This document shows positions 15,977 through 43,922 of a stretch of 64,000 bases of DNA, piece by piece (within the stretch, counting starts at the first letter, position 1; every line of letters starts with the position of its first letter). Source of the DNA: Escherichia coli (GTDB lineage Bacteria; Pseudomonadota; Gammaproteobacteria; Enterobacterales; Enterobacteriaceae); NCBI RefSeq assembly GCF_013122565.1, contig NZ_CP053258.1; one strand, written 5' to 3'. The notes beneath the pieces were generated by a model. That model was not told where the DNA came from. It saw only the letters and a list, made by a program, of their open reading frames with translations, and searched no databases. The translations under genes and the position numbers were made by a program.

Positions 15977-16071
15977 AATTTTATGTCCGCTACAGAGGGT
16001 GATGAGGTTATGAGAGTGAGGTTGCCCCTCTCCCCAGAAGGAAGAAGGGATCGTAAGGTGCAGTTGGAGGG

Positions 16072-19890: not shown

Positions 19891-19929
19891 ACACCGTCTT
19901 TCTGGTGTGTTGATAGCAAGCCTCCCGGT

Positions 19930-20535: not shown

Positions 20536-20792
20536 TCACATTCCCCTGGTTTTTGTGGCTGTTTTCGATGAATTGAGAATAGCAACGATAATCTGATAAA
20601 AGAACCCGCTTAAATTTAATTCGCCGTATTTCGCCTTTTTGTTGAATGATGTTCAACAATCTTTTCGCAGTGTGCGGTAGTGCAATATTTGTTTCTTTGA
20701 CCCGATACCCTTTCACTCAATCAGGTTTTATTTCTCTATAGTCTGCACATGTAAGAGTAGCTTTCGTCCATGTCTAACCAGAGGGGAACAAG

Positions 20793-24318: not shown

Positions 24319-26352
24319 TCACGCGTCCGGGAACATCACGCTATGGCCCGGCGCTTCACGATGGAGATGGATAAAGTTAAGGTGCCGCTCGTACTGGTCG
24401 AGAATATCGGTGATCACCTGCTCTTTGCTGTAGTCCATCAGGTCGTTGCCCTGGCTGCCTTCTAACAGGAAGGTTTCCAGCCGGTAGTAAGTCGATTTAC
24501 CGCTACGTGCGCGGTAGGTAAAGCCCGGCACCGAATATTGCTGTGGCCAAATCTGATAGACAAAGTTTTGCTCTTCGCCCATATGCACCAACAAATCCAG
24601 ATGCCCCAACTGTTGTCCCTCTTCCGGCGGTAGGCTTTTTAGCTCCACATACGCGCCGCGCAACCGCAGCTCTTGCGCCACTTCTTCCATTGCCGGGTAA
24701 CAGACCGTCTCCATCATCTGTTTAGTGTAACGCGTGCCCGGATAATTCATCAGGCGCGAGAGACGTTTTTTCCAACTCAGGCGATCCTGAAGCCCCAGCG
24801 GTCGCGGCGCGGTATCGCGGTTGGCACTTTCACGGCGGTAATCTTCTACTTTCAGAGATTTATACAACCCCGCCATCACGAAGAAGATCACAAAGCTGAA
24901 CGGCAGCCCCATAATCACCGTGGTGTTTTGCAGCGCGGATATCCCGTTGGTCATCAGCATGCCGAGCGTCAGCAGGCCAATCGCCACCGACCAGAAGACG
25001 CGCAGCCAGCCGGGGGCGTCGCTGTTGATATCTTTAAGCTGCGAGGTGAAATTCCCCAGCACCAGCGCCCCGGAGTCCGCCGAGGTCACATAAAACAGCA
25101 GGCCAGTAATGGTGGCGACGGAGGCGCTAAAGGTAAACGCCGGATACTGCGCCAGCAGGCTGTAGAAGCCGCGCTCCGGATGGACCATCGCTTCCTCTGC
25201 AAATGCCGCGCCGCCGTGGATGATTTCATACAGCGCGCTATTGCCGAACACCGAGAGCCATAACAGCGTGAAGGTAAACGGAATAATCAACGTGCCCAGC
25301 ACGAACTGGCGAATGGTACGCCCACGCGAGATACGCGCCAGGAACAAGCCGACAAACGGCGACCATGCCACCCACCATGCCCAGAAGAAGAGCGTCCAGT
25401 TATTCATCCACTCAACTGGACGGTCGAAGGCAAAACTGTTGAGCGTCATGCCCATAAAGCGATTCACATAGTCGCCAACATTCAGCACCAGTGCATTAAG
25501 CAGGAACGAAGTGTCGCCCATAAACAACACGAACAGGATCAATCCCAGCGCCAGCGCGACATTAAGCTCCGATAACACGCGAATGCCCTTATCGACACCG
25601 GATGTCACCGAGATAGTGGCGATGATCACCGACAAGGCGATCAGTGCCGCTTTCGCCGCCATTGAATCAGGAATATCAAACAGTACGCTCAAGCCATAGT
25701 TAAGCTGCACCACACCGATACCGAGCGTAGTGGCAATACCGAAGATGGTGCCGATCACCGCTGCAATATCCACTGAGTGACCTATCGGCCCGTTAATCCG
25801 TTTACCGAAGATCGGGTACAGCGCCGAGCGGATGGTGAGCGGCAAATTATAACGATAGCTAAAGTATCCAAGCGCCATGCCCATCAGCGCATACATCGAC
25901 CAGCCGGTTAAGCCGTAGTGAAACAGCGTCCAGACCATCGCCTGACGCGCGGCCTCAATCGTCTGTCCCGCGCCTTCCGGCGGCTGCATATACTGCGTTA
26001 CCGGTTCGGCTACGGAAAAGAACATCAGATCGATACCGATCCCGGCAGCAAACAGCATCGCCGCCCAACTCAGCAGACTGAATTCCGGTTTGGATTGTTC
26101 TGGCCCGAGCTTCACCGAACCAAAACGCGAACAAGCGATACAGACCACAAAGACAATATAGAGCGTTGCCGCCAGCAGATAGTACCAACCGAAGGTTTTA
26201 GAGACCCAGTCCAGCGTGCGGCCAATCCACAGGGCCGAGAAGTCGCGAAACAGGATCGTTGTCAGGGAAAACAACAAAATCAGTCCGGCGGAAGTGTAAA
26301 ACACCACCGGATTGATTTTGTCCTTTTCCCTGCTGTGTGAAAGGTCTGTCAT
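24319..26352 (-). CDS. betT: choline transporter BetT (BCCT family)
   Basis: 677-aa ORF MTDLSHSREKDKINPVVFYTSAGLILLF... Confidence 0.93.
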   Translation of the reverse strand: MTDLSHSREKDKINPVVFYTSAGLILLFSLTTILFRDFSALWIGRTLDWVSKTFGWYYLLAATLYIVFVVCIACSRFGSVKLGPEQSKPEFSLLSWAAMLFAAGIGIDLMFFSVAEPVTQYMQPPEGAGQTIEAARQAMVWTLFHYGLTGWSMYALMGMALGYFSYRYNLPLTIRSALYPIFGKRINGPIGHSVDIAAVIGTIFGIATTLGIGVVQLNYGLSVLFDIPDSMAAKAALIALSVIIATISVTSGVDKGIRVLSELNVALALGLILFVLFMGDTSFLLNALVLNVGDYVNRFMGMTLNSFAFDRPVEWMNNWTLFFWAWWVAWSPFVGLFLARISRGRTIRQFVLGTLIIPFTFTLLWLSVFGNSALYEIIHGGAAFAEEAMVHPERGFYSLLAQYPAFTFSASVATITGLLFYVTSADSGALVLGNFTSQLKDINSDAPGWLRVFWSVAIGLLTLGMLMTNGISALQNTTVIMGLPFSFVIFFVMAGLYKSLKVEDYRRESANRDTAPRPLGLQDRLSWKKRLSRLMNYPGTRYTKQMMETVCYPAMEEVAQELRLRGAYVELKSLPPEEGQQLGHLDLLVHMGEEQNFVYQIWPQQYSVPGFTYRARSGKSTYYRLETFLLEGSQGNDLMDYSKEQVITDILDQYERHLNFIHLHREAPGHSVMFPDA

Positions 26353-28567: not shown

Positions 28568-30238
28568 TTGCAATTTGACTACATCATTATTGGTGCCGGC
28601 TCAGCCGGCAACGTTCTCGCTACCCGTCTGACTGAAGATCCGAATACCTCCGTGCTGCTGCTTGAAGCGGGCGGCCCGGACTATCGCTTTGACTTCCGCA
28701 CCCAGATGCCCGCTGCCCTGGCATTCCCGCTACAGGGTAAACGCTACAACTGGGCCTATGAAACGGAACCTGAACCGTTTATGAATAACCGCCGCATGGA
28801 GTGCGGACGCGGTAAAGGTCTGGGCGGATCGTCGCTGATCAACGGCATGTGCTACATCCGTGGCAATGCGCTGGATCTCGATAACTGGGCGCAAGAACCC
28901 GGTCTGGAGAACTGGAGCTACCTCGACTGCCTGCCCTACTACCGCAAGGCCGAGACGCGCGATATTGGTGAAAATGACTACCACGGCGGCGACGGCCCGG
29001 TGAGCGTCACCACCTCCAAACCCGGCGTCAATCCGTTGTTTGAAGCGATGATTGAAGCGGGCGTGCAGGCGGGCTACCCGCGCACGGACGATCTCAACGG
29101 TTATCAGCAGGAAGGTTTTGGTCCGATGGATCGCACCGTCACGCCGCAGGGCCGTCGCGCCAGTACCGCGCGCGGTTATCTCGATCAGGCCAAATCGCGC
29201 CCTAACCTGACCATTCGTACTCACGCTATGACCGATCACATCATTTTTGACGGCAAACGCGCGGTGGGCGTCGAGTGGCAGGAAGGCGACAGCACCATTC
29301 CAACCCGCGCAACGGCCAACAAAGAAGTGTTGTTATGTGCAGGCGCGATTGCCTCACCGCAGATCCTGCAACGCTCCGGCGTCGGCAACGCTGAACTGCT
29401 GGCGGAGTTTGATATTCCGCTGGTGCATGATTTACCCGGCGTCGGCGAAAATCTTCAGGATCATCTGGAGATGTATCTGCAATATGAGTGCAAAGAACCG
29501 GTTTCCCTCTACCCTGCCCTGCAGTGGTGGAATCAGCCGAAAATCGGTGCGGAGTGGCTGTTTGGCGGCACCGGCGTTGGTGCCAGCAACCACTTTGAGG
29601 CGGGCGGATTTATCCGCAGCCGCGATGAATTTGCGTGGCCGAATATTCAGTACCATTTCCTGCCAGTGGCGATTAACTATAACGGCTCGAATGCAGTGAA
29701 AGAGCACGGCTTCCAGTGCCACGTCGGATCGATGCGCTCGCCAAGCCGTGGGCATGTGCGGATTAAATCCCGCGACCCGCACCAGCATCCGGCAATTCTG
29801 TTTAACTACATGTCGCACGAACAGGACTGGCAGGAATTCCGCGATGCAATTCGCATCACCCGCGAGATCATGCATCAACCCGCGCTGGATCAGTATCGTG
29901 GCCGCGAAATCAGCCCCGGTGTCGAATGCCAGACGGATGAGCAGCTCGATGAGTTCGTGCGTAATCACGCCGAAACCGCCTTCCATCCGTGCGGTACCTG
30001 CAAAATGGGCTACGACGAGATGTCCGTGGTTGACGGCGAAGGCCGCGTACACGGGCTGGAAGGCCTGCGCGTGGTGGATGCGTCAATTATGCCGCAGATT
30101 ATCACCGGCAATTTGAACGCCACGACGATTATGATTGGCGAGAAAATAGCGGATATGATTCGTGGACAGGAAGCGCTGCCGAGGAGCACGGCGGGATATT
30201 TTGTGGCAAATGGGATGCCGGTGAGAGCGAAAAAATGA
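28568..30238 (+). CDS. betA: choline dehydrogenase (GMC oxidoreductase)
   Basis: TTG start giving [21 protein letters not shown] (556 aa); FAD-binding GxGxxG. Confidence 0.9.
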
Positions 30239-30966
30239 GTCGTGATTTGAACTGACGCAAGTCCCTGCAAAGTTAAGCGTTACCGTCTTGAGATAGGTAT
30301 ACAAAGTCTCATACTTCTCTCTCAACAATCCGAAATAATCGGGTACCCGCGTTTACCGGATCAGGAAGGCATATACTATCCGGTCTGCGCTTTCTACTGC
30401 AATATTTCTAAAAGTTGCGCAACACGCGGCAGGATAGTGCTTTTACGCAAAGAAGCACTTTCTGCCGCCCGGGAAATGCGCGCGTGCTATACGCCGTTTT
30501 ACCTGAGATATGACAGAGTAAAGCCCTGTTAAAATACTCTTGTCGTCTCAGGTAAAATAAGTGATTAATATCAATCATATATTTTTACAGCAAGACAACC
30601 ACGTACAAACTCAGGATTAATATGTTTTACCGATTCCCCAACATAACCCAAATCAAGCGAACTAATTTGTGCCATTTCTTTCTCTGTCAATGAGAAATCG
30701 ATTTTTGATGGGCATCTGCAATACTCTGAAGCAGACTATAAGGAAAATTCTACTGCCCCCCTCCATTCCGCATGAACAATGAGTCTACGTTAAAACGTAA
30801 CCTCAAATTAGTATGTGGATTTTGATATCACTTATGCAAAAAATTCATTAATAATGTAGGACTGAAACCTCTCTATTTTCGGGGACAACGAAGCAGACGC
30901 TACCAGTGCTTTTGCCTTCGGCCTTGCTGTTTTTGATACACTTAGGGCCCAGGGCATAACGAAAAT

Positions 30967-31857
30967 GTGCGATATGACGAAGAATTAATGGAGAATGTGA
31001 TGATCAGGCAGAAGATTCTACAGCAGCTCCTGGAGTGGATTGAGTGCAATCTCGAGCACCCTATTTCAATTGAAGATATCGCACAGAAATCTGGCTACAG
31101 CAGACGCAACATCCAGCTTCTGTTCCGAAATTTCATGCATGTGCCTTTGGGAGAATACATTCGCAAACGAAGGCTTTGTCGTGCCGCCATTCTTGTCCGG
31201 CTCACCGCAAAATCTATGCTTGATATTGCACTCTTTTTGCATTTTGATTCACAGCAGTCATTCAGCCGCGAATTTAAAAAGTTATTCGGCTGCTCTCCCC
31301 GTGAATACCGCCACCGTGATTATTGGGATCTCGCAAATATCTTCCCTTCTTTTTTAATACGTCAACAGCAAAAGACGGAGTGTAGATTAGTCAACTTTCC
31401 TGAGACACTTATTTTTGGCAATTCATTTAAATATGACATTGAAGTGTCGAATAAATCACCGGATGAAGAAGTCAAACTGCGACGTCATCATTTAGCCAGA
31501 TGTATGAACAATTTTAAGACGGATATCTATTTCGTCTCCACGTTTGAACCGTCAACAAAATCGGTCGATTTACTCACAGTTGAAACTTTTGCCGGTACGG
31601 TATGTAAACAAACCGATTCAGAGATGCCGAAAGAGTGGACAATTAACCGAGGACTGTATGCATCTTTCCGCTATGAAGGTGAGTGGAAGCACTACCCTGA
31701 ATGGGCGCGAAACCTCTATCTGATGGAATTACCCGCCAGGAGGTTAGCCAGAGTGAACGGCAGTGATATTGAGCGGTTTTATTACAATGAAGATTTCGTA
31801 GAAAAGGATAGCAATGATGTTGTTTGCGAAATATTTATTCCTGTTCGTCCGGTTTAG
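30967..31857 (+). CDS. AraC-family regulator with GyrI-like effector domain (ykgA-like)
   Basis: 296-aa ORF; N-terminal AraC HTH (ISIEDIAQKSGYSRRNIQLLFRN...FDSQQSFSREFKKLFGCSPREYR); true start may be an internal Met. Confidence 0.7.
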   Translation: MRYDEELMENVMIRQKILQQLLEWIECNLEHPISIEDIAQKSGYSRRNIQLLFRNFMHVPLGEYIRKRRLCRAAILVRLTAKSMLDIALFLHFDSQQSFSREFKKLFGCSPREYRHRDYWDLANIFPSFLIRQQQKTECRLVNFPETLIFGNSFKYDIEVSNKSPDEEVKLRRHHLARCMNNFKTDIYFVSTFEPSTKSVDLLTVETFAGTVCKQTDSEMPKEWTINRGLYASFRYEGEWKHYPEWARNLYLMELPARRLARVNGSDIERFYYNEDFVEKDSNDVVCEIFIPVRPV

Positions 31858-31911
31858 CTGTCGCTATATCTAAATGAATTTATAACGAGACTACTGTCAG
31901 GCAATTCAATA

Positions 31912-31944
31912 AATAATGGCGTTGAAGATGTCAACGCCATTATT
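31912..31944. terminator. bidirectional rho-independent terminator between AraC-family gene and eaeH
   Basis: Perfect 14-bp stem aataatggcgttga/tcaacgccattatt, 5-nt loop, T-rich flanks on both strands. Confidence 0.7.
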
Positions 31945-31979
31945 GTTTATTAGAATGCTACTTTCATATCCTTAAAATA

Positions 31980-34900
31980 TTATTTAGCCGCTTCTTCTCC
32001 CTTTGCCGTATCTTCTGCCACGGCGGTAATGGTCACCGTCACTGGCTTCATTTCGTACCCGCCATAGGTCAGGGCGTTAAATGTGAACGTATAGACACCA
32101 GGCTTGCTGGTACTAAATGTACGCGTGATTTTTCCGCTCACGAAATGGTCATTTTTCGACGGCAGGAACTGATAATCCTTCTCCGTCACCCCTTCCGGCG
32201 TCTGAATGTCGACCCACATATTCCCCCCAACGGGGTTGTTTGCCGACATCAGTGTCACCTCCAGCTTCGCAGTCGATTTCCCATCCGCCACCAGAGATTG
32301 CACATCAGATGATGCGGTGAGTACCGCATTTTTATCATCCGCGACGAATTTAGATTCGGCAGTTTTCGTCGATACCTGACCGTTGTTCTGACTCACTTGC
32401 GCCGTGAGTGTATATGTCGCCGCAACAGTAGTGGTAGCGGTGAAAATAGCCTGCCCTTGCTCATTCGTTGTCGCAGTGCCATTCGGTTCCAGGTTTAACG
32501 AAGCCGGGCTGGCAGTCAGCGTCACTTCGCTATCTTTCAACAGGTTGTTATTGGCATCAGTCACCGTAACTTTATACGTTTGTTTGGCTTTGCCGTCCGC
32601 CAGCGCATAGTTGCCAATCACCTCAATACCGGAGACGGTTGCGGTAGCCTTATCGGCTACAAACGTTATAGTCTGCGTATTCGAAGGCTGGCTATTCCCT
32701 GCCGATGCCGTGATCTCATACGTTCCGGCAGTCACTGAAACCACCTGCAACTCTGCTTTCCCCTCATCGTTGGCTTTCACCCAGACATTATCGCCTGTAA
32801 GCGGCTTGACACCCCGGGGCAGATTAAAGGTCACCAGGCTCCCTGGAACAGGGTTACCATTTTTATCCTCAACGGTCGCCGTCAGCGTAAAGGCATCTTT
32901 GCCGTTTGCCACTTTTTGAACGGCGGTGTCTACCTGCAGGTTTGCCTGACCGGTGCTGGCATCCGCGTTGAATTTCACCGTGACCGTCTTCTGAGCACCA
33001 TTCACCGAAGCGGAAATATTGTGTTCTCCCGCAACCGTTGACATAAGCTCAATGTCCACTTTCCCTGCCGCATTGGTTGTTACTGTATTCCCCGTCTTGC
33101 TGGTCACACCCTGCGGTAAAGTCAGCGTAACTTCTTGCCCCTGCAACGGGTTACCATAGCTGTCCACGACGGTCAGGGTTATCTGGTTAGCAGACTGTCC
33201 ATTAGCCAGTTGGTTATTAACCTTCACTGTCATATCACGAATATCAGCCTGAGAAGCGTCCCCTGCAACGTTCAGCACCAGTGGCTGAGCAACAGCATTT
33301 TGGCCGTTCACTCGCGGCATCACAGACAACTGACCCGCAGCCGATCCCAGCGTTAAGGTCGCCACGTAGACCCCATTACCTTTCTCTGTCCAGTTTCCTG
33401 CTGAAGGACGCTCACTCCCCGTGCTGGCGGCACCGCTAAACACTGGTGCATCTGGCTTCAGCCCGGTGACCGGGTTCCCGTACGCATCCTTCACGGTGAA
33501 GGTGAGTTCCGTCGTCGTTTTGACGGTCGGAGCCTTATTGTCCGCAACAAGCGTAGAGTTCGCTGATGACATCTCTCCGGCGATGACCGTCAACTGCGCG
33601 GCTTCGGTGGCTGCTGGCTGGCCGTTGAAGAGCGGCATGACACGAAGCTCGCCCGTCTTTCCGCCTGTAGTCAACGTAGCAACATAGGAACCGTCACCTT
33701 TTTCGGTCCAACTGGAAACGGTCGCCCCTTCAGAGGCGGTCCCCGTCAAACTTGCCGACAACGCAAGACCACTGATAGCGTTGCCATGCGCATCTTTCGC
33801 CACCAGCATCACGGTTGTGCTTTCGCCGGCTTTTACGTGATCTTCTGCGACAGAGACTTTCGACTGGTTTGAAGATAACGCATCAGCCACCACGGTTACT
33901 TTTGCCGCATTTGCTGCCGCATCCTGTCCATTTAGCTTCGGCATAACTTCTAATTCACCCGCCGTAGAGCCGAGAGTAATCTGCGCAGTCCACGTCCCAT
34001 CACCATTATTTGTCCAGCCCGATGCCGTAGAACCTACAGCAGCGGCACCCGCTAATGACGGCGCTTCCGGCGTGAGGCTGGTCACAGGGTTGTCATAGGC
34101 ATCTTTTACCGTCCAGATTGCCGTAACTGTACCCCCAACCACCGGTTTATCAGGATTCAGGGTGATGGACGAATGTGCTGCATCAAGCGGCCCGGCAACA
34201 AACTTCAGCGTTTGTTGTAATGTGCCCAGCTGATACTGCTCGCTGAAGGCACGCACAACAACATTTCCTGCGCGAGTCGAAGAAACCGTAGCGCTGTAAA
34301 CCCCTGGTTTTATTTCCGAAATGGCACCAACGGTAACACCATTAATGTCTTGCGGAACAAGTCGCAGGCGGCTGGCTTCTCCCGTCACCGGATTACCCTC
34401 GGAGTCCACCGCAGTCAACGTCAACGTATAGGCTTGCTGACCATCAGCAACCACGTCACCTGACGGCTCGTTAGCGCTCAGGGTGGAGTTTGCCACATCC
34501 ATCATCGTGGCCCGCAGTTCTGCAGTGACGGTTTTGCTCATGCCATCAACGCTAACAGTAATCGTTGCCTCACCTGACTGCGTTCCGGTAGTAAAGACAG
34601 ACTGATACACCCCTGCTTCAGTTTCGGTGAACTCACCCAGTGTTGGCTTTGCCTGTGATTTAGTGGACTTCAGGGAACGAGTCACAATATTTCCAGCCGG
34701 TTTGAAGGCTAGTTCAGTCTTGATCTGATCTTTCATGCCCGTGACTGGCTGGCCCTCGGCGTCGCGCAGAGACAGCACCAGCGGTCTTTGCTCATTACCG
34801 TTAGCAAGCATTTGAATACGGCTCTGACCGTCAAGCGTTAACGCCGTGCGATCGGCACTCATACCTGCTCCGGTAATGACCACCTCTGTCTGCACGCGTT

Positions 34901-36233
34901 TTGAGGCATTGCCTTTGTTATCGTAGGCAACCGCAGAAATCGCATAATAATTGTCTTTGCCTGCCTGGTAAGCCGGGAGCGTCACTTGCCACTGATTACC
35001 CTGCCCCGTAATTTTTCCGCCTGCGGCCAGCAAAGACGGCGCTTCCCATTGAACATTTTTCAGACCGTGAGTTGCTTTACTCACCACAAGCCCCAGGGAA
35101 ACCGTCTGCCCGCCCTTGCCTTCAATACGTTCAGGCAGAGCAATACGGATCACTTCAGATTTGCGGTACTCAAGAACGATGTTGTTATTACGCTCAACCA
35201 GGTCATAGCGGCTGCCTGCCAGCATTCGACGCTCGCGAATGCTGTCTGTATCGAGTTGTTTTTGCAGAGGTTCGCCAATCCGATAATTAACTTCCAGGCC
35301 AAAGCGAGTGTCATTCTCACCACTCTTGCCCTGCTTATGCCCGGCACTCAGGGTCAGAAGAGGCACTGGCGTATAGGTCACCTCGGCAGAAATAGCATGC
35401 GGGTCTTTCTGGCGTTTATCTTTACCAAACAGCCCGACTTCATCGCCATAATACTGTTCATACATCAGGCTTGCGCCAAGCTGCGGCCAGGCGGGTAAAT
35501 AGCCCTCAGCACGAATATCCCAGCCATTCGCCGGGCGTTCCTGATAATCCTCAACATCCGGCGATTTTTTCCAGCCAGAAGCCCGGATATAACCATTGGC
35601 GCTCAGTTTCAAATAATCACGCCAGTATTCCGCACCAACACCAATGCGGGTATGACTACGGGATAAATCATGGTCGATAAAGGTGTTCACCCCCGCCATC
35701 CAGTCATTTCCTGAAAAATGACGCCAGCCAAAACCAATATTTGACTGAGTGCGATCATCTGTACGATGTATTGCCCCCTGAGTGAACAACATATTTGTCG
35801 GCGTATCATAAATAGGATAAAGCATTTCCAGAGAAGAATCCTTCAGCGAGAAATCTTTATCGACATTGAGTTTGACGCGCGCAGTACCGTATTTCCCGAG
35901 CCACTCCTGTATTTCCTGGTTAGCTTTAGCGGTGGCCATTCCGGTAATAAAGTTACGTGTCGCATCGCTATCTGGCTGACTGCTTAAAAAATTCCCAGCA
36001 TTTGCGGCAAACGACGCGACATTTTTCTCCACATTATTATCAGCAGCTACTGTGGTATTTTCCATGCTCAACCGTGGCTGAACCGCATGCTGCGCGCGTG
36101 CCGCCATTACTGGGGTAAAGGTGACCGCGAGTGGAAAAAGAACCTGAACAGAGATATTTGCCCACGCCACACAGCGGGCCAGAACTGAATAACGAAATCG
36201 TGGTTGTTTATGACCTGTTTTATAACGCGACAT
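31980..36233 (-). CDS. eaeH: intimin/invasin-family outer-membrane adhesin, full length (EaeH/FdeC)
   Basis: 1417-aa ORF; N-terminal beta-barrel region followed by many tandem Ig-like repeats; truncated pseudogene in K-12 as I recall. Confidence 0.85.
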   Translation of the reverse strand: MSRYKTGHKQPRFRYSVLARCVAWANISVQVLFPLAVTFTPVMAARAQHAVQPRLSMENTTVAADNNVEKNVASFAANAGNFLSSQPDSDATRNFITGMATAKANQEIQEWLGKYGTARVKLNVDKDFSLKDSSLEMLYPIYDTPTNMLFTQGAIHRTDDRTQSNIGFGWRHFSGNDWMAGVNTFIDHDLSRSHTRIGVGAEYWRDYLKLSANGYIRASGWKKSPDVEDYQERPANGWDIRAEGYLPAWPQLGASLMYEQYYGDEVGLFGKDKRQKDPHAISAEVTYTPVPLLTLSAGHKQGKSGENDTRFGLEVNYRIGEPLQKQLDTDSIRERRMLAGSRYDLVERNNNIVLEYRKSEVIRIALPERIEGKGGQTVSLGLVVSKATHGLKNVQWEAPSLLAAGGKITGQGNQWQVTLPAYQAGKDNYYAISAVAYDNKGNASKRVQTEVVITGAGMSADRTALTLDGQSRIQMLANGNEQRPLVLSLRDAEGQPVTGMKDQIKTELAFKPAGNIVTRSLKSTKSQAKPTLGEFTETEAGVYQSVFTTGTQSGEATITVSVDGMSKTVTAELRATMMDVANSTLSANEPSGDVVADGQQAYTLTLTAVDSEGNPVTGEASRLRLVPQDINGVTVGAISEIKPGVYSATVSSTRAGNVVVRAFSEQYQLGTLQQTLKFVAGPLDAAHSSITLNPDKPVVGGTVTAIWTVKDAYDNPVTSLTPEAPSLAGAAAVGSTASGWTNNGDGTWTAQITLGSTAGELEVMPKLNGQDAAANAAKVTVVADALSSNQSKVSVAEDHVKAGESTTVMLVAKDAHGNAISGLALSASLTGTASEGATVSSWTEKGDGSYVATLTTGGKTGELRVMPLFNGQPAATEAAQLTVIAGEMSSANSTLVADNKAPTVKTTTELTFTVKDAYGNPVTGLKPDAPVFSGAASTGSERPSAGNWTEKGNGVYVATLTLGSAAGQLSVMPRVNGQNAVAQPLVLNVAGDASQADIRDMTVKVNNQLANGQSANQITLTVVDSYGNPLQGQEVTLTLPQGVTSKTGNTVTTNAAGKVDIELMSTVAGEHNISASVNGAQKTVTVKFNADASTGQANLQVDTAVQKVANGKDAFTLTATVEDKNGNPVPGSLVTFNLPRGVKPLTGDNVWVKANDEGKAELQVVSVTAGTYEITASAGNSQPSNTQTITFVADKATATVSGIEVIGNYALADGKAKQTYKVTVTDANNNLLKDSEVTLTASPASLNLEPNGTATTNEQGQAIFTATTTVAATYTLTAQVSQNNGQVSTKTAESKFVADDKNAVLTASSDVQSLVADGKSTAKLEVTLMSANNPVGGNMWVDIQTPEGVTEKDYQFLPSKNDHFVSGKITRTFSTSKPGVYTFTFNALTYGGYEMKPVTVTITAVAEDTAKGEEAAK

Positions 36234-37128
36234 TGAGATAATTTCCTGATGAACGAATTAACGAACATATGCAGACACAAATAATGGCGTCTGCTTGTCA
36301 GAAAAACCGGGAATTTCCCGGTTTCCTTTTCCGCAGAAAAGGAAATACCTTTATGTAAGAAAGTGCACCGCCACCTAATATATTCAGTGTCTGTAGCCAC
36401 TCATCAGGTGGTTGGGCGCGGGATTATATTTTTATTTATGGGTGAAAATTTAGCTTTTTGTGCAAGTCATTAAAGTATGATTGTCACACTATATTCTCCG
36501 TTTAAATACAGTGAATATATTTTTATTTAAAGTGAATAATGATGTTCTGCTTTTAGTGACCACGATTAGAATTACGCCTAAAGAGGTATATGTTCATAAT
36601 AAGCCAATATTTTTTAAGGGTATTTATTTTCTTTCATCGGGCTATAAAATCCCGAAATATCGGATTTGCACAGCACCGATCAACAGTGCTTAAGCAGGCG
36701 GGTGCTGTTTACGACCAGGATAGTTAAGATAATATCCGGGAAAAGTTGGACATCAGCCCTGTAGAACCTGAATAAGTTCGCCTGACTTTACATAATCATG
36801 AACCGCGTTTTCGGAGCCACAGGCGGTACCAAAGTAAAAGGCTGGTGATGGGTACCTTTAGCCGAATCAGGTAGAAGTCATGAAATTCCCCCCTTAATCC
36901 ACAGCGTGTTCCTGAACTAACCATTCCGGATAGACTATTGGATCAAATTCAGGCATCGAAAGGAACAGGCTGTTTCCCGTTAAGGGATTAATTATCTATT
37001 TTCCTTAATAGATAACTGATGTAATACCTCTATTCAAATTTGTGATACATGTCAAAAAATTGGTTGACCAAACTCGTTATTTATATAAGGACACTTACGA
37101 AGTGCATTTTTAAAGCGAGGAAGTACCA

Positions 37129-37230
37129 ATGAAAGAGAATAAAGTACAGCAAATCAGTCATAAACTGATCAATATCGTTGTTTTTGTTGCAATAGTAGAA
37201 TACGCCTATTTATTTCTCCATTTCTATTAA
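37129..37230 (+). CDS. ykgR: small membrane protein YkgR (33 aa)
   Basis: ATG preceded by GAGGAAG; MKENKVQQISHKLINIVVFVAIVEYAYLFLHFY; not in the ORF track (too short). Confidence 0.6.
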   Translation: MKENKVQQISHKLINIVVFVAIVEYAYLFLHFY

Positions 37231-37290
37231 TAACGGCAATAAACTGTTCACTTTAGTGATATTTAAAATATGCATCCTTTTTCTGCTTTT

Positions 37291-37317
37291 CAAGCTGTTC
37301 AAGCTGTTCAAGCTGTT
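37291..37317. repeat. perfect 9-bp tandem repeat x3 (caagctgtt)
   Basis: caagctgtt caagctgtt caagctgtt followed by partial cag; intergenic. Confidence 0.9.
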
Positions 37318-37657
37318 CAGCGGCGTAAGAGAAAGTATTGAGTATGAATTCGACGATTTAACCATATCTGTTTGATTGGTAATCATCCGTGATTAATGCT
37401 GGTCTATTGATTACGCCAGCATTAACCGCTTAGGGATGTATTCTTCCTGTTCATATACAGCCCTCGAAAAAGAGAGCAAATAAAACTGTGTCCAATATTA
37501 CTCTACCACTCCAGACCGAAGTATCGGTAGAATTAGCAGAACGGCTGGTACAGTAGATTGGGATAGCGTCATTTGTCAGGCATTCCATTGCCATAATAAT
37601 AATTATGAATCAATAGACGTGCTTCTTGATCATGTCTTAAAAATTATACCACGAGCC

Positions 37658-37888
37658 TTATGAAGCATCATTTTTACTGACTGGTGTTAACTTTGCTATC
37701 ATATAAACTCTGTTCTTAAAAAACGCGCCCAGAATTTTATATGATTTTCCTTGTTTTTCTGCCTGTAAAGAAATTTCTTTTTCAGTGCTGTCAATGGTTG
37801 AACCGACGGCAGTAATCGTTTTGGCGACGCTACTGAAAGATAATAAAGACAGTGTCATCACAACAATTAAAGAACAGATAGTATTCAT
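37658..37888 (-). CDS. small secreted protein, DUF1471-like
   Basis: Start at MNTICSLIVVMTLSLLSFSSVA (76 aa); mature part resembles the YahO/BhsA family (TIDSTEKEISLQAEKQGKSYKILG). Confidence 0.5.
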   Translation of the reverse strand: MNTICSLIVVMTLSLLSFSSVAKTITAVGSTIDSTEKEISLQAEKQGKSYKILGAFFKNRVYMIAKLTPVSKNDAS

Positions 37889-38103
37889 GCTAATTCTCCT
37901 GACAATTGAGAGGATGAGTTTTATATACATAGATATTAAACATGAGTCATATTTACTCCAAGAGAAAATACCCCTTCTGTAATTAAACCTTCATCTCCTT
38001 CGGAATGAGTAATGCATAATATAATGCATCTTGCTATGCAAAACAGTGGATATAAATTTTCCTCCCGACCTATTTAATAAAACGTGAATGTAAAAGTTAT
38101 TCT

Positions 38104-38841
38104 TCAGTTTGCAGATGCAGTGGGTCTGATGGTAATTTCGGTTGTATCAACGCTTTCGGGCGATTCAATAATATGCCTTACAGCACGGGCAATATCCGCA
38201 GGTTGAAGTGCAACAGAACGGTAGACATCCATTGCCTTCATGGTTTCCACATGGGTAATGGTTGAAGCCAGTTCACTTTCGACAACGCCAGGATTTACGC
38301 ATGTCACACGGATTTTCGAGCTTTCCTGCCGTAAGCCATCAGAAATAGCCCTTACTGCAAATTTTGATGCGCAATAGACTGCGCCTGTGGGCACAACAGA
38401 AAGGGCACCAATAGAACCAAGATTGATTATCTGACCGGAACCCTGTGCTTCCATCACCGGAAGTACAGCGCCAATTCCCCAAAGTACACCTTTGATATTC
38501 ACGTCTATAGTGAGCTCCCATTCATCCTGTTTTCCTGCTGCAAGCGGTGAAAGCGGCATAACGCCCGCATTATTGATAAGAACATCAACTCGCCCCCAGC
38601 TATCCAGCGCTGCTTGCACGAAATCGGCCATGGACTGTCGGTTTGTGACATCCAACTCCCGCGCTTTAGCAATTCCTCCTGCGCGGCAGATTTCGGTTGC
38701 AATGGCTTCGATACGCTCAACTCTGCGTGCGCCCAGTAAAACCTTTGCACCTGTCGTTCCCAGCGCTCTGGCAATACCTTCCCCAATACCACTTGATGCG
38801 CCGGTAATTAATATGACCTTATCCATTACGTTCTCCTTCAA
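38104..38841 (-). CDS. short-chain dehydrogenase/reductase (SDR)
   Basis: 245-aa ORF; Rossmann motif TGASSGIG, NNAG motif, catalytic YxxxK (YCASK); true start may be MDKVILITG. Confidence 0.85.
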   Translation of the reverse strand: MKENVMDKVILITGASSGIGEGIARALGTTGAKVLLGARRVERIEAIATEICRAGGIAKARELDVTNRQSMADFVQAALDSWGRVDVLINNAGVMPLSPLAAGKQDEWELTIDVNIKGVLWGIGAVLPVMEAQGSGQIINLGSIGALSVVPTGAVYCASKFAVRAISDGLRQESSKIRVTCVNPGVVESELASTITHVETMKAMDVYRSVALQPADIARAVRHIIESPESVDTTEITIRPTASAN

Positions 38842-38924
38842 ATGTGTTCGGAGAGAGAATAGAACTTTATGATTGGTTCCAGTATCCTGCTTTCAATGTA
38901 CTCAGTGGTTAGCGGCATTAAACA

Positions 38925-39824
38925 ATGAAAATCGATCTTAATCTTTTACCCATTTTTATCGCGGTAGCAGAAGAGAGTAATTTTAGTAAAGCCGCCGCAC
39001 GACTGGGCGTTACCCGTTCAGCGGTCAGTCAGGGAATAAGACGCCTTGAAGATGCATTCGGGACAATGCTTGTAATGCGGACCACGCGCTCAGTTAATTT
39101 GACGGAAGCGGGAGAACGGCTGCATAAATCGTTGTCATTACCTTTATCCGGTATTGAGGCAACGTTCGAAGAGATGGTTTCTGACCATGTGCCACGCGGA
39201 CTTCTCAGAATCGCGGTGACGTCGATAGCAGAAGAATTTCTTTCAGGTCCGCTAATCGCTTCGTTTGCAGCTGCCAATCCAGCCGTTACGCTTGATATTG
39301 TTGTAACGGATGAGGAATTCGATATCGTGGCCGCAGGTTACGATGCTGGCGTAAGGCTCGGAGAGGTCATTGAAAAAGACATGATTGCTGTGCCCATTAC
39401 CGGCAGGCAGCGTGAAATGGTCGTTGCCTCTCCCTCCTATCTCGCAGCCAACAGCACTCCTGTTCATCCGCGTGAACTTGTGAATCATAAGTGTATCGGC
39501 TGGCGTCAGTCCCCGGAGGTTGCGCCTTATCGCTGGCCATTTGAAGAAAACGGGAGAGCTTTCGACCTTGCGATTGAACCGCAGATTACGACTAATGATC
39601 TGCGTCTGATGTTGCGGCTGGCTCTTGCCGGTGGAGGAATAACAATTGCCACTCAGGAAACTTTCAGGCCGTATATTGAAAGCGGTAAGCTTGTATCGCT
39701 GCTTGATGACTTTCTTCCACAATTTCCGGGCTTCTATCTGTATTTCCCACAGCGTCGCAATATTGCACCAAAGCTCCGCGCCCTGATTGACCACGTCAAA
39801 GAATGGCGGCAGCAATTGACTTAA
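38925..39824 (+). CDS. LysR-type transcriptional regulator
   Basis: 299 aa; N-terminal HTH (FSKAAARLGVTRSAVSQGIRRLE); divergent from the SDR gene. Confidence 0.85.
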   Translation: MKIDLNLLPIFIAVAEESNFSKAAARLGVTRSAVSQGIRRLEDAFGTMLVMRTTRSVNLTEAGERLHKSLSLPLSGIEATFEEMVSDHVPRGLLRIAVTSIAEEFLSGPLIASFAAANPAVTLDIVVTDEEFDIVAAGYDAGVRLGEVIEKDMIAVPITGRQREMVVASPSYLAANSTPVHPRELVNHKCIGWRQSPEVAPYRWPFEENGRAFDLAIEPQITTNDLRLMLRLALAGGGITIATQETFRPYIESGKLVSLLDDFLPQFPGFYLYFPQRRNIAPKLRALIDHVKEWRQQLT

Positions 39825-40389
39825 ATGTCTGCACCTGCACGGCCTGATGTCAGAACAATATTTTGATGAATTGCCTACACCAGCTAGCCGCAGCACATTC
39901 TTGCATACGACATGTCTGCGGTTTACTTTTCACGCTCAAACCTTATGGTAAAGCACAATAATGATCCCCAGGGCTATATAAATGTTTTGTAATTAGCTCT
40001 TAAGACGAACTTTTCAGACTAACTTCTTTATTCATCCATAATGAAGACTGTATTAGGAAGTTCTCTAAAAACATGAATAACCACTGTCTTACAATGAATT
40101 TAGTTTACAGAACATTCTTATTGAGAAAAAACAACACTGTACACACCCAATAATATAGAAATGTAAATTTAAGTTTATTAATCTTTTGAATTATAATCAT
40201 AACTTTCTGTTAACCATTAGAATATCAATAGATTATAATCACTGAACACACATTTTTATAATTGCTATTCCCACACTCAAAATGCGCATCCCAATATCTT
40301 ATTTGACACTTTGTTGTTTGCTACTAGAGTTAATTGGGTGCTGACAAGGCACATGTTATTTACAAATTGGAAATCAGAGGAGAAATGAT

Positions 40390-40572
40390 ATGACCGAACA
40401 TCGTGGCGGTGCAGGTAATTTCGCTGAAGATCGACAAAAAGCTTCTGACGCAGGTCGTAAAGGTGGCCAACAAAGTGGTGGTAATTTTAAAAACGATCCA
40501 CAAAGAGCATCAGAAGCAGGGAAAAAAGGTGGTCAGAATAGCCATGGCGGCGGTCGTAAATCTGACTCTTAA
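40390..40572 (+). CDS. KGG-repeat stress protein (YciG/YmdF family)
   Basis: 60 aa with repeated GG[NQ]..KKGGQ motifs. Confidence 0.8.
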   Translation: MTEHRGGAGNFAEDRQKASDAGRKGGQQSGGNFKNDPQRASEAGKKGGQNSHGGGRKSDS

Positions 40573-40645
40573 TTTTTCATCTCCCTAAATTCGTGAATAA
40601 CTGCAGCTAACTGCGAGCCTACGGGCTCGCAGGGACAACTCTGGA

Positions 40646-41152
40646 GTGATTATGCAAATTAAATCTGTTGAAGATATCTTCATCCATTTATTATCTGACA
40701 CATATAGTGCTGAGAAACAACTAACCAAGGCACTATCTAAACTTACTCGCTCCGCATATAGTGATAAATTAACCGCTGCTTTTCAGTCACATCTTGATGA
40801 GACACATGGTCAAATTGAACGCATCGACCAGGTTGTTGATTCTGAAGATGGTATTAAACTAAAAAGAATTAAGTGCGCCGCAATGGAAGGCCTTATTGAA
40901 GAGGCGAATGAGGTAATTGAAAGCACTGACAAAAATGAAATACGTGATGCTGCGTTGATTGCAGCAGCACAAAAAGTAGAACACTATGAAATTGCCAGTT
41001 ATGGCACCCTGGTAACACTTGCTGAGCAATTAGGATTTAAAAAAGCGGCTCAACTCCTGAAAGAAACTCTGGAAGAGGAAAAAGCTACTGATGTCAAATT
41101 AACAGACCTGGCATTTAATAATGTTAATAAAAAAGCTCAGGATAACTCCTGA
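40646..41152 (+). CDS. DUF892 ferritin-like protein (YciE/YciF family)
   Basis: 168 aa ...VEDIFIHLLSDTYSAEKQLTKAL...KVEHYEIASYGTL... Confidence 0.8.
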   Translation: MIMQIKSVEDIFIHLLSDTYSAEKQLTKALSKLTRSAYSDKLTAAFQSHLDETHGQIERIDQVVDSEDGIKLKRIKCAAMEGLIEEANEVIESTDKNEIRDAALIAAAQKVEHYEIASYGTLVTLAEQLGFKKAAQLLKETLEEEKATDVKLTDLAFNNVNKKAQDNS

Positions 41153-41186
41153 ACTATAGACTTCACTTTTTTAGGAGAAATATATT

Positions 41187-41693
41187 ATGAATAGCATTGA
41201 ACATTATCATGACTGGCTTCGTGACGCACACGCAATGGAGAAACAAGCGGAATCAATGTTGGAGTCTATGGCCAGCAGGATAGAAAACTATCCTGAGTTA
41301 CGTTCCAGAATTGAGCAGCACATTAGCGAAACAAAGAACCAGCTTTCACAGCTTGAAAGCATACTTGATCGTAATAATATTTCTCGCTCTGTCATTAAAG
41401 ACTCTATGAGTAAAATGGCCGCGTTTGGGCAATCTATTGGTGGAATTTTTCCATCTGATGAAATTGTCAAAGGTTCGATCAGTGGCTATGTTTTTGAACA
41501 ATTTGAAATTGCGTGCTACACATCTCTTCTCGCAGCAGCCAAAAATGCGGGTGATACAGCTTCAGTACCAATTATTGAAGCAATTCTTAATGAAGAAAAA
41601 CAAATGGCTGAATGGCTTCTTAACCATATTCCAGACACCACTGAGCAGTTTATGGTCAGATCTGAAATTGATGGCGCTGAAGCAAAAAAATAA
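41187..41693 (+). CDS. DUF892 ferritin-like protein (YciE/YciF family), second copy
   Basis: 168 aa MNSIEHYHDWLRDAHAMEKQAESML...FEIACYTSLLAAAKNAGD... Confidence 0.8.
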   Translation: MNSIEHYHDWLRDAHAMEKQAESMLESMASRIENYPELRSRIEQHISETKNQLSQLESILDRNNISRSVIKDSMSKMAAFGQSIGGIFPSDEIVKGSISGYVFEQFEIACYTSLLAAAKNAGDTASVPIIEAILNEEKQMAEWLLNHIPDTTEQFMVRSEIDGAEAKK

Positions 41694-41711
41694 TTCTTTA
41701 GAGGAGGAATT

Positions 41712-42602
41712 ATGTTTAGACACGTGAAAAAACTTCAATATACAGTACGTGTAAGTGAACCAAACCCAGGCTTAGCTAATCTACTTTTAGAACAATTCGG
41801 CGGCCCACAGGGTGAGCTTGCAGCTGCATGCCGATACTTCACTCAAGGTTTAAGTGATGAAGATGCAGGTCGAAGGGATATGCTGATGGACATAGCAACA
41901 GAAGAACTAAGCCATCTCGAAATTATTGGTTCTCTTGTTGGTATGCTCAACAAAGGTGCAAAAGGAGCACTCGCTGAAGGAACTGAGAATGAAGCGGAGC
42001 TTTACCGTTCCTTAACTCAAAATGGCAATGACAGCCATATAACTTCTCTTCTCTACGGAGGAGGCCCAGCATTAACTAATTCAGCTGGAGTACCCTGGAC
42101 TGCAGCTTATGTTGATACTATTGGCGAAGTCACAGCCGATCTTCGTTCAAATATTGCAGCTGAAGCTCGTGCAAAGATCATTTACGAGCGTCTCATTAAT
42201 GTTACTGATGATCCTGGAGTGAAAGACACTCTGGCATTTTTAATGACCAGGGAAGCAGCACATATGCTTTCTTTTGAAAAAGCATTACATTCAATTCGTA
42301 ACACTTTTCCACCAGGAAAATTACCACCGATTGAGAAGTACAAAAACGTATATTACAACATGTCAGAAGGTGAAGATGTCAGAGGTAGTTGGAACAGTGA
42401 TGAAAACTTTGATTATGTTTCCGATCCAGTTCCAGCTGTTGACGGTGGGGATGGGAAGGCCTCGATAATTCTTTCGACCAAGCAAGAAGCTATGATAAAA
42501 GCTATGGCAACAAGGTTGAAATCCCATGAAGATATCAATCCTGTCACTGGCGCTGAGCTTGCTGAAGGAGAGCCACAAACAAAGGTAAATAGTAAAAACT
42601 AA
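41712..42602 (+). CDS. manganese catalase (KatN-like)
   Basis: 296 aa; ...LAAACRYFTQG...EELSHLEIIGSLV... and ...REAAHMLSFEKAL... typical of di-Mn catalases. Confidence 0.75.
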   Translation: MFRHVKKLQYTVRVSEPNPGLANLLLEQFGGPQGELAAACRYFTQGLSDEDAGRRDMLMDIATEELSHLEIIGSLVGMLNKGAKGALAEGTENEAELYRSLTQNGNDSHITSLLYGGGPALTNSAGVPWTAAYVDTIGEVTADLRSNIAAEARAKIIYERLINVTDDPGVKDTLAFLMTREAAHMLSFEKALHSIRNTFPPGKLPPIEKYKNVYYNMSEGEDVRGSWNSDENFDYVSDPVPAVDGGDGKASIILSTKQEAMIKAMATRLKSHEDINPVTGAELAEGEPQTKVNSKN

Positions 42603-42692
42603 TTATCTTCTGGTATTTAGCTATCTCTCATAAATTTTAATGGCCGCAGAGATATCCTAAGCTCTAGCCACTGAAAATACATTTATATTTCG

Positions 42693-42725
42693 AAGCCCGC
42701 GATATTATAAGCGGGCTTTTATTTT
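42693..42725 (+). terminator. rho-independent terminator after the catalase gene
   Basis: Stem aagcccgc/gcgggctt (8 bp) followed by TTATTTT. Confidence 0.7.
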
Positions 42726-42832
42726 AACCTTCTGGTATTACAGGCCACTCAATATCCGGTGCTACTGATGGCTCAACACGATTCAACAACATCCGATATG
42801 TCTTCCATGCGGCCATTCAACATTTCGCAGAA

Positions 42833-43718: not shown

Positions 43719-43732
43719 CTTATTGATTTAAA

Positions 43733-43808
43733 TGGTGCCGATAAGAGGAGTCGAACCTCCGACCTTCGCATTACGAATGCGCTGCTCTACCAACTGAGCT
43801 ATATCGGC
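43733..43808 (-). tRNA. thrW: tRNA-Thr (anticodon CGU)
   Basis: Minus strand GCCGATATAGCTCAGTTGGTAGAGCAGCGCATTCGTAATGCGAAGGTCGGAGGTTCGACTCCTCTTATCGGCACCA; full cloverleaf, anticodon loop TTCGTAA, encoded CCA. Confidence 0.92.
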
Positions 43809-43922
43809 CCTGAAAGGACATGTTCACGAACGTGAATCACGGTGGACAAGGTTAAAACTAACCGGGCGATGCGTCAATGGCCTTGTGAATCAAATGGCTA
43901 CTTTTGCATCACCCGGTTTTAT

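Follow-up and report, generated by a model that had tools for sequence, protein, structure and literature searches.

The window, i.e., the whole stretch of 64,000 nt of Escherichia coli DNA that was analysed, very probably carries a rare and old deletion haplotype of the well-known betA-ykgA-fdeC region of E. coli. The compact arrangement is real and explained, and it is an ordinary strain variant, though a rare one. A sequence-only reading had described betA, a gap of about 730 nt, an AraC-family regulator and a full-length 1417-aa adhesin, and this layout was confirmed by the ORF map, the sequence and Pfam matches (Table 1). The betA stop codon TGA occupies positions 30236-30238. The distance from there to the regulator is 728 nt when counted to the GTG that opens the AraC-type ORF (30967-31857), or 761 nt when counted to the ATG at 31000. 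Probes for IS1, IS3 and ISEcp1 detected no IS sequence across the 64-kb window, in agreement with the same reading.

Table 1. Features of the betA-thrW region (positions in the window).
Feature	Coordinates	Strand	Basis or remark
betA, choline dehydrogenase, 556 aa, last gene of betIBA	28568..30238	+	Pfam GMC_oxred_N and GMC_oxred_C; betA annotation in colinear genomes
Conserved 21 nt 3' of betA	30239..30259	.	Last left-side stretch colinear with normal E. coli; blastn to K-12 and O55:H7
Filler 1, 49 nt	30260..30308	.	Replaces about 1.09 kb of K-12 DNA including the whole ykgH
ykgG 3'-end remnants (n=2)	30309..30449	-	blastn to K-12/O55:H7 ykgG; tblastn with YkgG
Filler 2, 41 nt	30450..30490	.	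Marks the site of the 6,597-bp deletion
Remnant of the rclC-to-reductase spacer, E. coli-type	30491..30573	.	blastn to O55:H7 locus (L002) from 13955
Aldo/keto reductase pseudogene fragments (K-12 ykgQ)	30571..30764	-	tblastn; colinear with K-12 ykgQ
First 16 nt of the reductase gene and native ykgA upstream region (divergent promoter region)	30738..30999	.	95.8% identity to O55:H7 locus (L002) 14902-15165
ykgA, intact Rob-like AraC-family regulator, 285 aa	31000..31857	+	Pfam; orthologue comparison
Hairpin with 14-bp stem between convergent ykgA and fdeC	31912..31944	.	Terminator-like scan; consensus match only
fdeC/eaeH, full-length inverse autotransporter adhesin, 1417 aa	31980..36233	-	Pfam, O55:H7 FdeC, PDB 4e9l
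ykgR, 33 aa	37129..37230	+	tblastn 100%
thrW, tRNA-Thr, right anchor of the compact betA-thrW interval	43733..43808	-	ARAGORN and Rfam

The K-12 map given in the earlier reading, with ykgEFGH and rclRABC between betA and ykgA and with an IS-interrupted eaeH, was correct; the IS3 copy of K-12 disrupts ykgA as well. The window does not have a K-12-type betA-ykgA interval containing ykgH, ykgEFG and rclRABC. No match to K-12 YkgH, YkgF, YkgE, RclR, RclA, RclB or RclC was obtained by tblastn anywhere in the 64-kb window, and the sole trace of ykgH, ykgEFG or rclRABC in these searches was a 29-aa fragment of YkgG. The absence of ykgEFGH and rclRABC claimed before was thus confirmed for the window except for this fragment. 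The missing K-12 content amounts to about 7.8 kb (7.75 kb).

In the gap between betA and ykgA, at least two large deletions and one small deletion are combined with two fillers. The two ykgG remnants, 30309-30367 (59 nt) and 30362-30449 (88 nt), are 80% and 84-89% identical to ykgG of K-12 and O55:H7 (blastn, E=5e-23), and about 62 nt are absent between them. At the protein level, aa 167-195 of YkgG were matched at 76% identity (tblastn, E=7e-7). The deletion on the ykgH side corresponds to positions 19466-20556 of the K-12 locus (L003), and the 6,597-bp deletion to positions 12661-19257 of the same locus, which comprise ykgG codons 1-166, ykgF, ykgE, rclR and rclABC. Similarity of the fillers (49 nt and 41 nt) to the deleted K-12 DNA scored no higher than that of shuffled controls. 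The spacer remnant of 83 nt starts 67 nt beyond the rclC stop codon of O55:H7 and has no counterpart in the rcl-less locus of Escherichia sp. E1V33. Of the reductase, aa 248-289 with the stop codon (30571-30699, 95% identity) and aa 193-216 (30693-30764, 71% identity) were found by tblastn. Relatives annotate these fragments as partial aldo/keto reductase, and the gene carries two older internal deletions common to K-12. The ykgG fragments, the rclC-side spacer and the reductase fragments have kept their original order and strand. Their presence in the gap indicates that the segment was lost in several events rather than never acquired, so that neither of the two explanations offered before, a lineage that never acquired the segments or one that lost them cleanly, was upheld. 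No RNA family was detected in the gap with Rfam at gathering thresholds, a promoter/terminator scan of the gap gave a result within shuffle expectation, and the small ORFs of the gap were just the ykgQ remnant and unconserved frames.

Of 5426 complete E. coli genomes, 8 share the junctions of the window and a ninth (ET201) shares them in part; they also occur in two draft assemblies (GCA_018578885.1 from NCBI and Logan SRR11451197). Five of the complete genomes (wlxctx60, 6EVA, UTME-7, PT62 and LP5-1) carry a scar with identical junctions and fillers at 99.7-100% identity to the window, and three (MB53, LHM10-1 and CP52E) carry a second allele at 92.9%. The shared junctions and fillers point to one origin of the scar. 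The two alleles diverge by about 7%, which shows that the loss is old and is similar to the divergence of betA/betB at 4-fold sites between lineages (6.5-11%). The ykgG remnants have diverged from intact ykgG by 11-20%, an estimate of age that is rough because the remnants are short (59 and 88 nt). At least 80% of the 6.6-kb segment is present in 5072 of the 5426 complete genomes. The window and wlxctx60 are identical without interruption for at most 925 nt (30128-31052), a run that spans the entire scar; against their mean divergence of 3.9% over 16.8 kb, this points to exchange of the scar. Truncation of ykgA or fdeC by IS1 or ISEcp1, with deletion of the DNA beyond, has occurred in scar-bearing relatives. 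The window's YkgA was found on four contigs, and both loci that were retrieved have the same arrangement at 98.9% identity; the exact FdeC sequence of the window is not on record. A scan of genome contigs for YkgA returned three loci only (E1V33 and two contaminated MAG contigs), too few for a broad outgroup series. In the literature on these genes, we found no published description of the betA-ykgA deletion. A non-coli Escherichia as the source of the window was ruled out, since YkgA and FdeC are 97% identical to E. coli proteins, compared with 87-90% for E1V33. The window contains no phylotyping marker.

It is very unlikely that the compact order is ancestral and that ykgH, ykgEFG and rclRABC never arrived. 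The cryptic Escherichia sp. E1V33 has no rclRABC between ykgE and the reductase gene, which means that rcl is not genus-wide, and the lineage of the window is divergent, with at best 96.8-98.7% identity to any complete E. coli genome. The ykgG fragments in the gap, however, lie at the expected place and in the expected orientation, the E. coli-type spacer on the rclC side has been kept, and E1V33 itself has ykgGFE and the reductase gene intact. Given that Escherichia includes an rcl-less state, the case for a loss of rcl rests on the 83-nt spacer; because the window keeps this stretch, which E1V33 lacks, we infer that the ancestor carried rcl. A collapse in sequencing or assembly at 30239-30966 that artificially dropped the genes, a caveat raised in the earlier reading, can be dismissed; nothing was found in its favour. 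Five genomes finished independently of one another share the junction at 99.7-100% identity, the second allele occurs in three more, the junction also occurs in the NCBI draft and the Logan assembly, and no repeats able to drive a collapse flank the gap.

A transfer of rcl and/or ykgEFG to another chromosomal site or to a plasmid of the same genome is unlikely and would leave the reading of a scar at the betA-ykgA site standing. Such a transfer would be in line with one extra probe match each in the scar-bearing strains LHM10-1 and CP52E, with plasmid matches to the 6.6-kb segment and with known plasmid-borne copies of ykgEFG, e.g., on pFec10 (PMC7984374), but a chimeric rclA/ykgF probe had no match elsewhere in 6 of the 8 scar-bearing chromosomes, and none of these genes is located within the 64-kb window, the part of the source genome that was covered. 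We also consider it quite improbable that an IS element, since lost, caused the deletion, as in the IS1-bounded deletions of relatives. IS activity is common at this locus, with IS1/ISEcp1 in scar-bearing relatives and IS3 in K-12. Yet the junctions of every scar allele are free of IS sequences, IS ends and target duplications, the IS elements of the relatives sit to the right of the scar and represent later events, and an IS-bearing intermediate at 30260-30308 or 30450-30490 was seen in none of the 5426 genomes.

For the deletion haplotype, we propose an ancestor with the order betA, ykgH, ykgGFE, rclR, rclABC, aldo/keto reductase, ykgA and fdeC. The reductase gene would already have been a pseudogene (the ykgQ state, as in K-12) when illegitimate deletions without IS elements at the junctions took two blocks, one of about 1.1 kb with ykgH and one of 6.6 kb reaching from inside ykgG through ykgF, ykgE and rclR to rclABC. 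The rclC-proximal spacer, a pair of ykgG fragments and two short fillers would have been left behind. The neighbouring genes betIBA as well as ykgA and fdeC, each of these two with its native upstream region, are untouched. The scar would later have been passed on by descent and also, through homologous recombination, between a few lineages of E. coli.

The ATG at 31000 is the likely start codon of ykgA and would give a gene of 858 nt (285 aa), as annotated in relatives. The protein has a two-HTH AraC DNA-binding domain (residues 27-106; Pfam HTH_18, E=7.7e-19, and HTH_AraC, E=4.4e-16) and a C-terminal GyrI-like effector domain (residues 127-283, E=6.2e-11), and is 97.5% identical to its O55:H7 orthologue. 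Its assignment as RobA, the AcrAB activator, was ruled out (NCBIfam RobA score of 193 bits against a cut-off of 380). Judged by its sequence, YkgA is a paralogue with Rob architecture and not Rob. The hairpin between ykgA and fdeC is likely a bidirectional terminator, a candidate function based on consensus match.

An IAT barrel, an Ig-like passenger, and orthology together with synteny identify the 1417-aa protein as FdeC/EaeH. The beta-barrel matched the full Pfam profile IAT_beta at residues 76-350 (E=2.7e-109) and also the invasin/intimin barrels PDB 4e1t and 4e1s. The passenger contains nine Invasin_D3/Big_1 repeats (Pfam), and the crystallized FdeC fragment (PDB 4e9l) matched residues 595-1008 with E=2.4e-247. 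Identity to O55:H7 FdeC was 96.7% over 1415 aa, without gaps, and fdeC is convergent with ykgA as in all genomes compared. The earlier reading had implied that an intact eaeH is unusual, but 4585 of the 5426 complete E. coli genomes have a near-full-length fdeC; intact fdeC is typical of E. coli, and K-12 is the outlier. In agreement with this, fdeC was reported in 83-100% of natural isolate classes, while among "nonpathogenic" strains of laboratory type 2 of 7 had it (PMC3324786). Other alleles have been shown to be displayed on the surface and to mediate adhesion to epithelial cells and collagen (PMC3324786, PMC11143625), and the intact ORF and conserved upstream region suggest that the FdeC of the window would behave likewise. 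We predict a normal FdeC that is expressible but H-NS-repressed.

The fdeC-thrW interval is likewise minimal and does not contain ykgMO, ecp or pao; proA comes after thrW. Positions 37162-37278 hold one copy of a 117-nt sequence; genomes with ykgMO-ecp-pao have it as a direct repeat (mapped against O145:H28 and O55:H7). It is conceivable, though we think it rather unlikely, that the window comes from an undersampled, deep-branching E. coli lineage with a naturally minimal betA-thrW interval (no rclRABC, ykgEFG, ykgMO, ecp or pao, and a yciGFE-katN-like Mn-catalase island present), and that the rcl-less scar allele possibly moves between 3-5% diverged backgrounds by homologous recombination, as the identical 925-nt patch might indicate. 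If true, this would suggest that some wild-animal or environmental niches tolerate or even favour the loss of the defence against reactive chlorine and hypothiocyanite.

The rcl system, which protects against HOCl and HOSCN (PMC7527725, PMC9335216), has also been associated with survival in the inflamed gut. The strain of the window is predicted to lack any response of RclR/RclABC to reactive chlorine and hypothiocyanite. Lactate oxidation by YkgEFG (LutABC-type; PMC7984374) should also be missing. The haplotype has little importance beyond strain typing. It does indicate that a few natural E. coli lineages can do without rcl and ykgEFG, and wlxctx60, 6EVA and PT62 offer natural rcl-null backgrounds for testing the role of rcl in inflamed guts. 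The scar is a specific and handy marker (9 of 5426 complete genomes, the ninth in part) for tracing the haplotype and nearby recombination.

The described FdeC/EaeH (Nesta et al. 2012, PMC3324786; PDB 4E9L) and the FdeC of the window have the same length (1416-1417 aa), IAT beta-domain, tandem Ig-like domains and locus. They differ by allele only; the best nucleotide identity of the window fdeC to any complete genome is 97.1-97.4%, and it falls to 86-92% in patches of the Ig-repeat region. K-12 MG1655 (b0296-b0314, eaeH to betT) has the same flanking genes as the window, shares the decayed reductase gene upstream of ykgA (ykgQ pseudogene) and is colinear with positions 30491-31660 at 93.8% identity. 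Its order is betA-ykgH-ykgGFE-rclR-rclABC-ykgQ-ykgA'-IS3-eaeH'; K-12 thus retains the 7.75 kb that the window is missing, while its IS3 truncates both ykgA and eaeH, which are intact in the window. The broken genes of K-12 are the exception and not the rule. The EHEC strains O55:H7, O157:H7 and O145:H28 have ykgA and fdeC intact. Unlike the window, these strains possess ykgH, ykgEFG, rclRABC and an aldo/keto reductase that is intact (289 aa). They also have the ykgMO-ecp-pao block and, separating fdeC from ykgR, a reductase/LysR/hydrolase block of 4.8 kb; in some EHEC strains the hyx island adjoins betA. Escherichia sp. E1V33 (NZ_RHJI01000008.1) has kept the ykgA-fdeC pair (87% and 90% aa identity). 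It lacks the rcl operon but has ykgGFE and the reductase gene intact, the spacer between ykgE and the reductase gene being homologous to the ykgE-rclR spacer of E. coli, and is not a scar haplotype. Close likeness was also seen in wlxctx60 (NZ_AP045833.1, bear faeces) and 6EVA (NZ_CP138428.1), whose gene order from betT to thrW is as in the window: betIBA, scar, ykgA, fdeC, ykgR, SDR, LysR, yciG/E/F-like genes, Mn catalase and thrW, followed by proA. Their scar is 99.8-100% identical to that of the window, whereas divergence in the flanks is 2-14% per 300-nt bin (mean 3.9%, over 16.8 kb for wlxctx60), and betT is neighboured by ehaA in both strains and by pdeL and yahB in the window. The lineage of the window differs in strain and clade from wlxctx60 and 6EVA.

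The ORF map and the raw sequence placed a non-coding stretch between the betA stop codon and an AraC-type ORF. According to Pfam, BetA is a GMC oxidoreductase, and the regulator combines an AraC DNA-binding domain with a GyrI-like domain. This is the architecture of Rob, although the score was well under the RobA equivalog cut-off. For the 1417-aa protein, whose domains the sequence-only reading had left to be annotated, the Pfam result was an inverse autotransporter in which a full IAT_beta barrel is accompanied by nine Invasin_D3/Big_1 repeats. Aligned without gaps over 1415 residues, the protein shared 96.7% identity with FdeC as annotated in an O55:H7 strain, and it matched the FdeC crystal fragment 4E9L (E=2e-247). 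It is thus FdeC (EaeH), and the regulator is YkgA. Probes for IS3, IS1 and ISEcp1 detected no IS sequence in the window. The ORF map, the sequence, Pfam and the IS probes thus confirmed the compact order of betA, AraC regulator and full-length adhesin without IS elements that had been proposed. No YkgH, YkgF, YkgE, RclR, RclA, RclB or RclC was found in the 64-kb window by tblastn with the K-12 proteins. The betIBA, ykgA and fdeC genes retained their own flanking sequences.

Features of the betT to thrW region (window positions)
Feature	Position	Strand	Remarks
betT	24319-26352	-	ORF map, raw sequence
betI, betB, betA		+	in this order after betT; betA stop TGA at 30236-30238
conserved sequence 3' of betA	30239-30259		21 nt; blastn/tblastn
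filler	30260-30308		49 nt
two ykgG 3'-part fragments	30309-30367, 30362-30449	as expected for ykgG	80-89% nt identity
filler	30450-30490		41 nt
colinear with K-12 from downstream of rclC through ykgQ to upstream of ykgA	30491-30997		91.6% identity
AraC-type ORF (ykgA)	30967-31857	+	858 nt from the ATG at 31000, as in the annotation of relatives
1417-aa ORF (fdeC/eaeH)	31980-36233	-	convergent with AraC-type ORF
ykgR and 48 nt downstream	37129-37278		single copy of 117-nt repeat at 37162-37278
yciGFE-katN-like island	39876-43714		beside tRNA-Thr (thrW)
con-10/KGG protein gene			in the island
two DUF892 (YciE/F-like) ORFs	40646-41152, 41187-41693		in the island
Mn catalase	41712-42602		in the island

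We dissected the interval 30239-30999 by blastn and tblastn. The ykgG fragments matched YkgG residues 167-195 at 76%. In K-12 coordinates, the absent DNA summed to about 7.75 kb in three pieces: 1,091 bp including the entire ykgH, about 62 bp within ykgG, and 6,597 bp comprising ykgG codons 1-166, ykgF, ykgE, rclR, rclA, rclB, rclC and 67 nt past rclC. The aldo/keto reductase gene was reduced to residues 248-289, residues 193-216 and the first 16 nt. Since K-12 has the same reductase state (ykgQ), this decay is an older event, separate from the scar deletions. Similarity of both fillers to the deleted DNA was no greater than that of shuffled controls, and neither Rfam, a promoter/terminator scan nor a small-ORF listing suggested a new function in the gap.

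The sequence-only reading had offered two explanations for the missing segments, clean loss or no acquisition in this lineage. A clean loss does not fit a scar with ykgG fragments, two fillers and reductase leftovers. The ykgG fragments also contradict the second explanation for ykgEFG, and they suffice alone to show that ykgEFG was formerly present at this site. The argument for rcl is an indirect one. The only cryptic Escherichia locus retrieved, from Escherichia sp. E1V33 (L007, 5377-15245), harbors ykgGFE, an intact aldo/keto reductase gene, ykgA and fdeC, but not rclRABC, so the rcl operon seems either to have been inserted in E. coli or to have been lost in the E1V33 clade, at the ykgE-reductase junction. 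The E1V33 spacer at this junction is the counterpart of the E. coli ykgE-rclR spacer, and the E. coli-type rclC-reductase spacer had no counterpart in the E1V33 locus. Since the window retains 83 nt of this latter spacer (30491-30573), the ancestor of the scar haplotype most likely had the rcl-containing arrangement, and absence from the outset is also most likely wrong for rcl.

A 651-nt scar query was covered in full by 8 of 5426 complete E. coli genomes. One allele was present in wlxctx60 (100%), UTME-7 and 6EVA (99.8%), and PT62 and LP5-1 (99.7%), the other in MB53, LHM10-1 and CP52E (92.9% each). ET201 had the left half of the scar followed by an IS1 element. A draft NCBI assembly (GCA_018578885.1) and one Logan assembly encoded an identical YkgA and aligned colinearly to window 21000-41853 (98.9% identity). 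An assembly collapse at 30239-30966, which had been named as a caveat, is excluded given these independent occurrences. Junctions and fillers were identical in the alignment of both alleles; hence, the scar arose once. Allele 2 (MB53, ET201, LHM10-1) showed an extra A in the A-run right before the betA stop (compare window 30230-30238), so that BetA is annotated with 562 instead of 556 aa, and its scar contained a tandem duplication of 9 nt (CTCTCTCAA). In several carriers among these three strains and two further relatives (loci L004 and L005), IS1 or ISEcp1 truncated ykgA or fdeC, with onward deletion, or replaced fdeC and downstream DNA. These insertions are later than the scar, and the window represents the state before any of them; IS-driven erosion of the region, absent from the window, is still under way in scar-bearing relatives.

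The two scar alleles diverged by about 7%, which is comparable to the divergence of 6.5-11% at 4-fold-degenerate sites of betA/betB between lineages. The ykgG fragments had diverged from intact ykgG by 11-20%. These values suggest that the loss is old relative to the diversification of E. coli. The window and wlxctx60 differed by a mean of 3.9% over 16.8 kb, and their longest identical run (925 nt, 30128-31052) had the entire scar inside. Identity of unconstrained DNA between diverged flanks points to recent common ancestry of this patch through recombination. Either homologous recombination would have carried the deletion allele, or it would have replaced the flanks. The best explanation of the locus is an old, multi-step, IS-free deletion scar beside a normal ykgA-fdeC pair.

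The source genome was seen only within the window, and chromosomes of relatives served as proxy for the remainder. A chimeric probe of the scar with 400 nt of K-12 rclA and 400 nt of K-12 ykgF still had one matching place in six of the eight scar-bearing chromosomes; hence, neither gene is present elsewhere in those six. LHM10-1 and CP52E each showed one additional place. Of 5426 genomes, 5072 had at least 80% of the 6.6-kb segment and 175 had no match to it; its loss by some route is uncommon, not extraordinary. RclR activates rclABC on reactive chlorine, RclA reduces Cu(II) and hypothiocyanite, and mutation of any rcl gene increases HOCl sensitivity (PMC7527725, PMC9335216). The strain is predicted to be without this RclR/rclABC reactive-chlorine defence. 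For YkgEFG, a lactate oxidation system of the LutABC type, K-12 shows no clear phenotype (PMC7984374).

Intact eaeH, implied by the sequence-only reading to be unusual, is the default state, since 4585 of 5426 complete genomes had fdeC at nearly full length (one piece covering at least 80%) and the gene was found in 83-100% of natural isolate classes; it is K-12 that has just an N-terminal pseudogene (Nesta et al., PMC3324786). The fdeC allele of the window reached at best 97.1-97.4% nucleotide identity among complete genomes and is new at the sequence level. The Ig-repeat region seems to carry mosaic alleles. Patches 32979-33878 and 34779-35378 had 86-92% nucleotide identity to wlxctx60, the remainder of the gene 95-99%. 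Regulation of FdeC by H-NS and temperature has been reported (Easton et al. 2014, as cited in PMC11143625); our literature search found no paper tying YkgA to fdeC regulation. Fragments of E. coli-type ykgA and fdeC (86-97% aa identity) also occurred in two MAG contigs labelled Bacillota and Collinsella (L008, L009), probably as Escherichia contamination of the bins.

The betA-thrW interval measured 13.5 kb in the window versus about 65 kb in K-12. Downstream of ykgR the window was without ykgMO, ykgL, ecpRABCDE, ykgJ, yagU and paoABCD. In O145:H28 the ykgMO-ecp-pao block (about 19.3 kb) has a 117-nt direct repeat at its two ends (full ykgR and partial ykgR'); the single copy in the window is consistent with deletion between the repeats or with an old insertion that duplicated the sequence. 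Past the Mn catalase gene lay degraded remnants of a phage integrase and tail fibre. The whole fdeC-thrW segment (36234-43950) was contiguous in only 2 of 5426 genomes, wlxctx60 (bear) and 6EVA (human). Best identity to complete E. coli genomes was 96.8% over 1-24300 and 98.7% over proBA-pepD. The lack of a close complete-genome relative and the apparent equidistance from several phylogroups suggest that the source is probably an undersampled, deep-branching E. coli lineage. Elsewhere, Rfam matched naRNA4, a REP-derived nucleoid-associated RNA, at 61557-61634 (-) with 74.5 bits (gathering score 59.5). A tRNA-Ser (GGA) called by ARAGORN at 10068-10148 (-), where the Rfam tRNA model stayed under its gathering score, could be either spurious or a degenerate tRNA.

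All components of the locus are known, and the haplotype is already in annotated public genomes. The MG1655 annotation has the order betA, ykgH, ykgG, ykgF, ykgE, rclR, rclA, rclB, rclC, ykgQ, ykgA, IS3A, eaeH, with ykgQ, ykgA and eaeH as pseudogenes, in agreement with the K-12 map given in the sequence-only reading (ykgEFGH and rclRABC between betA and ykgA, eaeH interrupted by an IS). The O55:H7-type strain and O145:H28 harbor the same block as K-12, but their 289-aa aldo/keto reductase, ykgA and fdeC are all intact. EHEC strains have a 4.8-kb reductase/LysR/hydrolase block between fdeC and ykgR, which both the window and K-12 lack. O145:H28 is without the yciGFE-katN-like island, and LysR directly abuts thrW. 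The hyx island adjoins betA in the O55:H7-type strain, whereas only a hyxB fragment of it remains in O145:H28.
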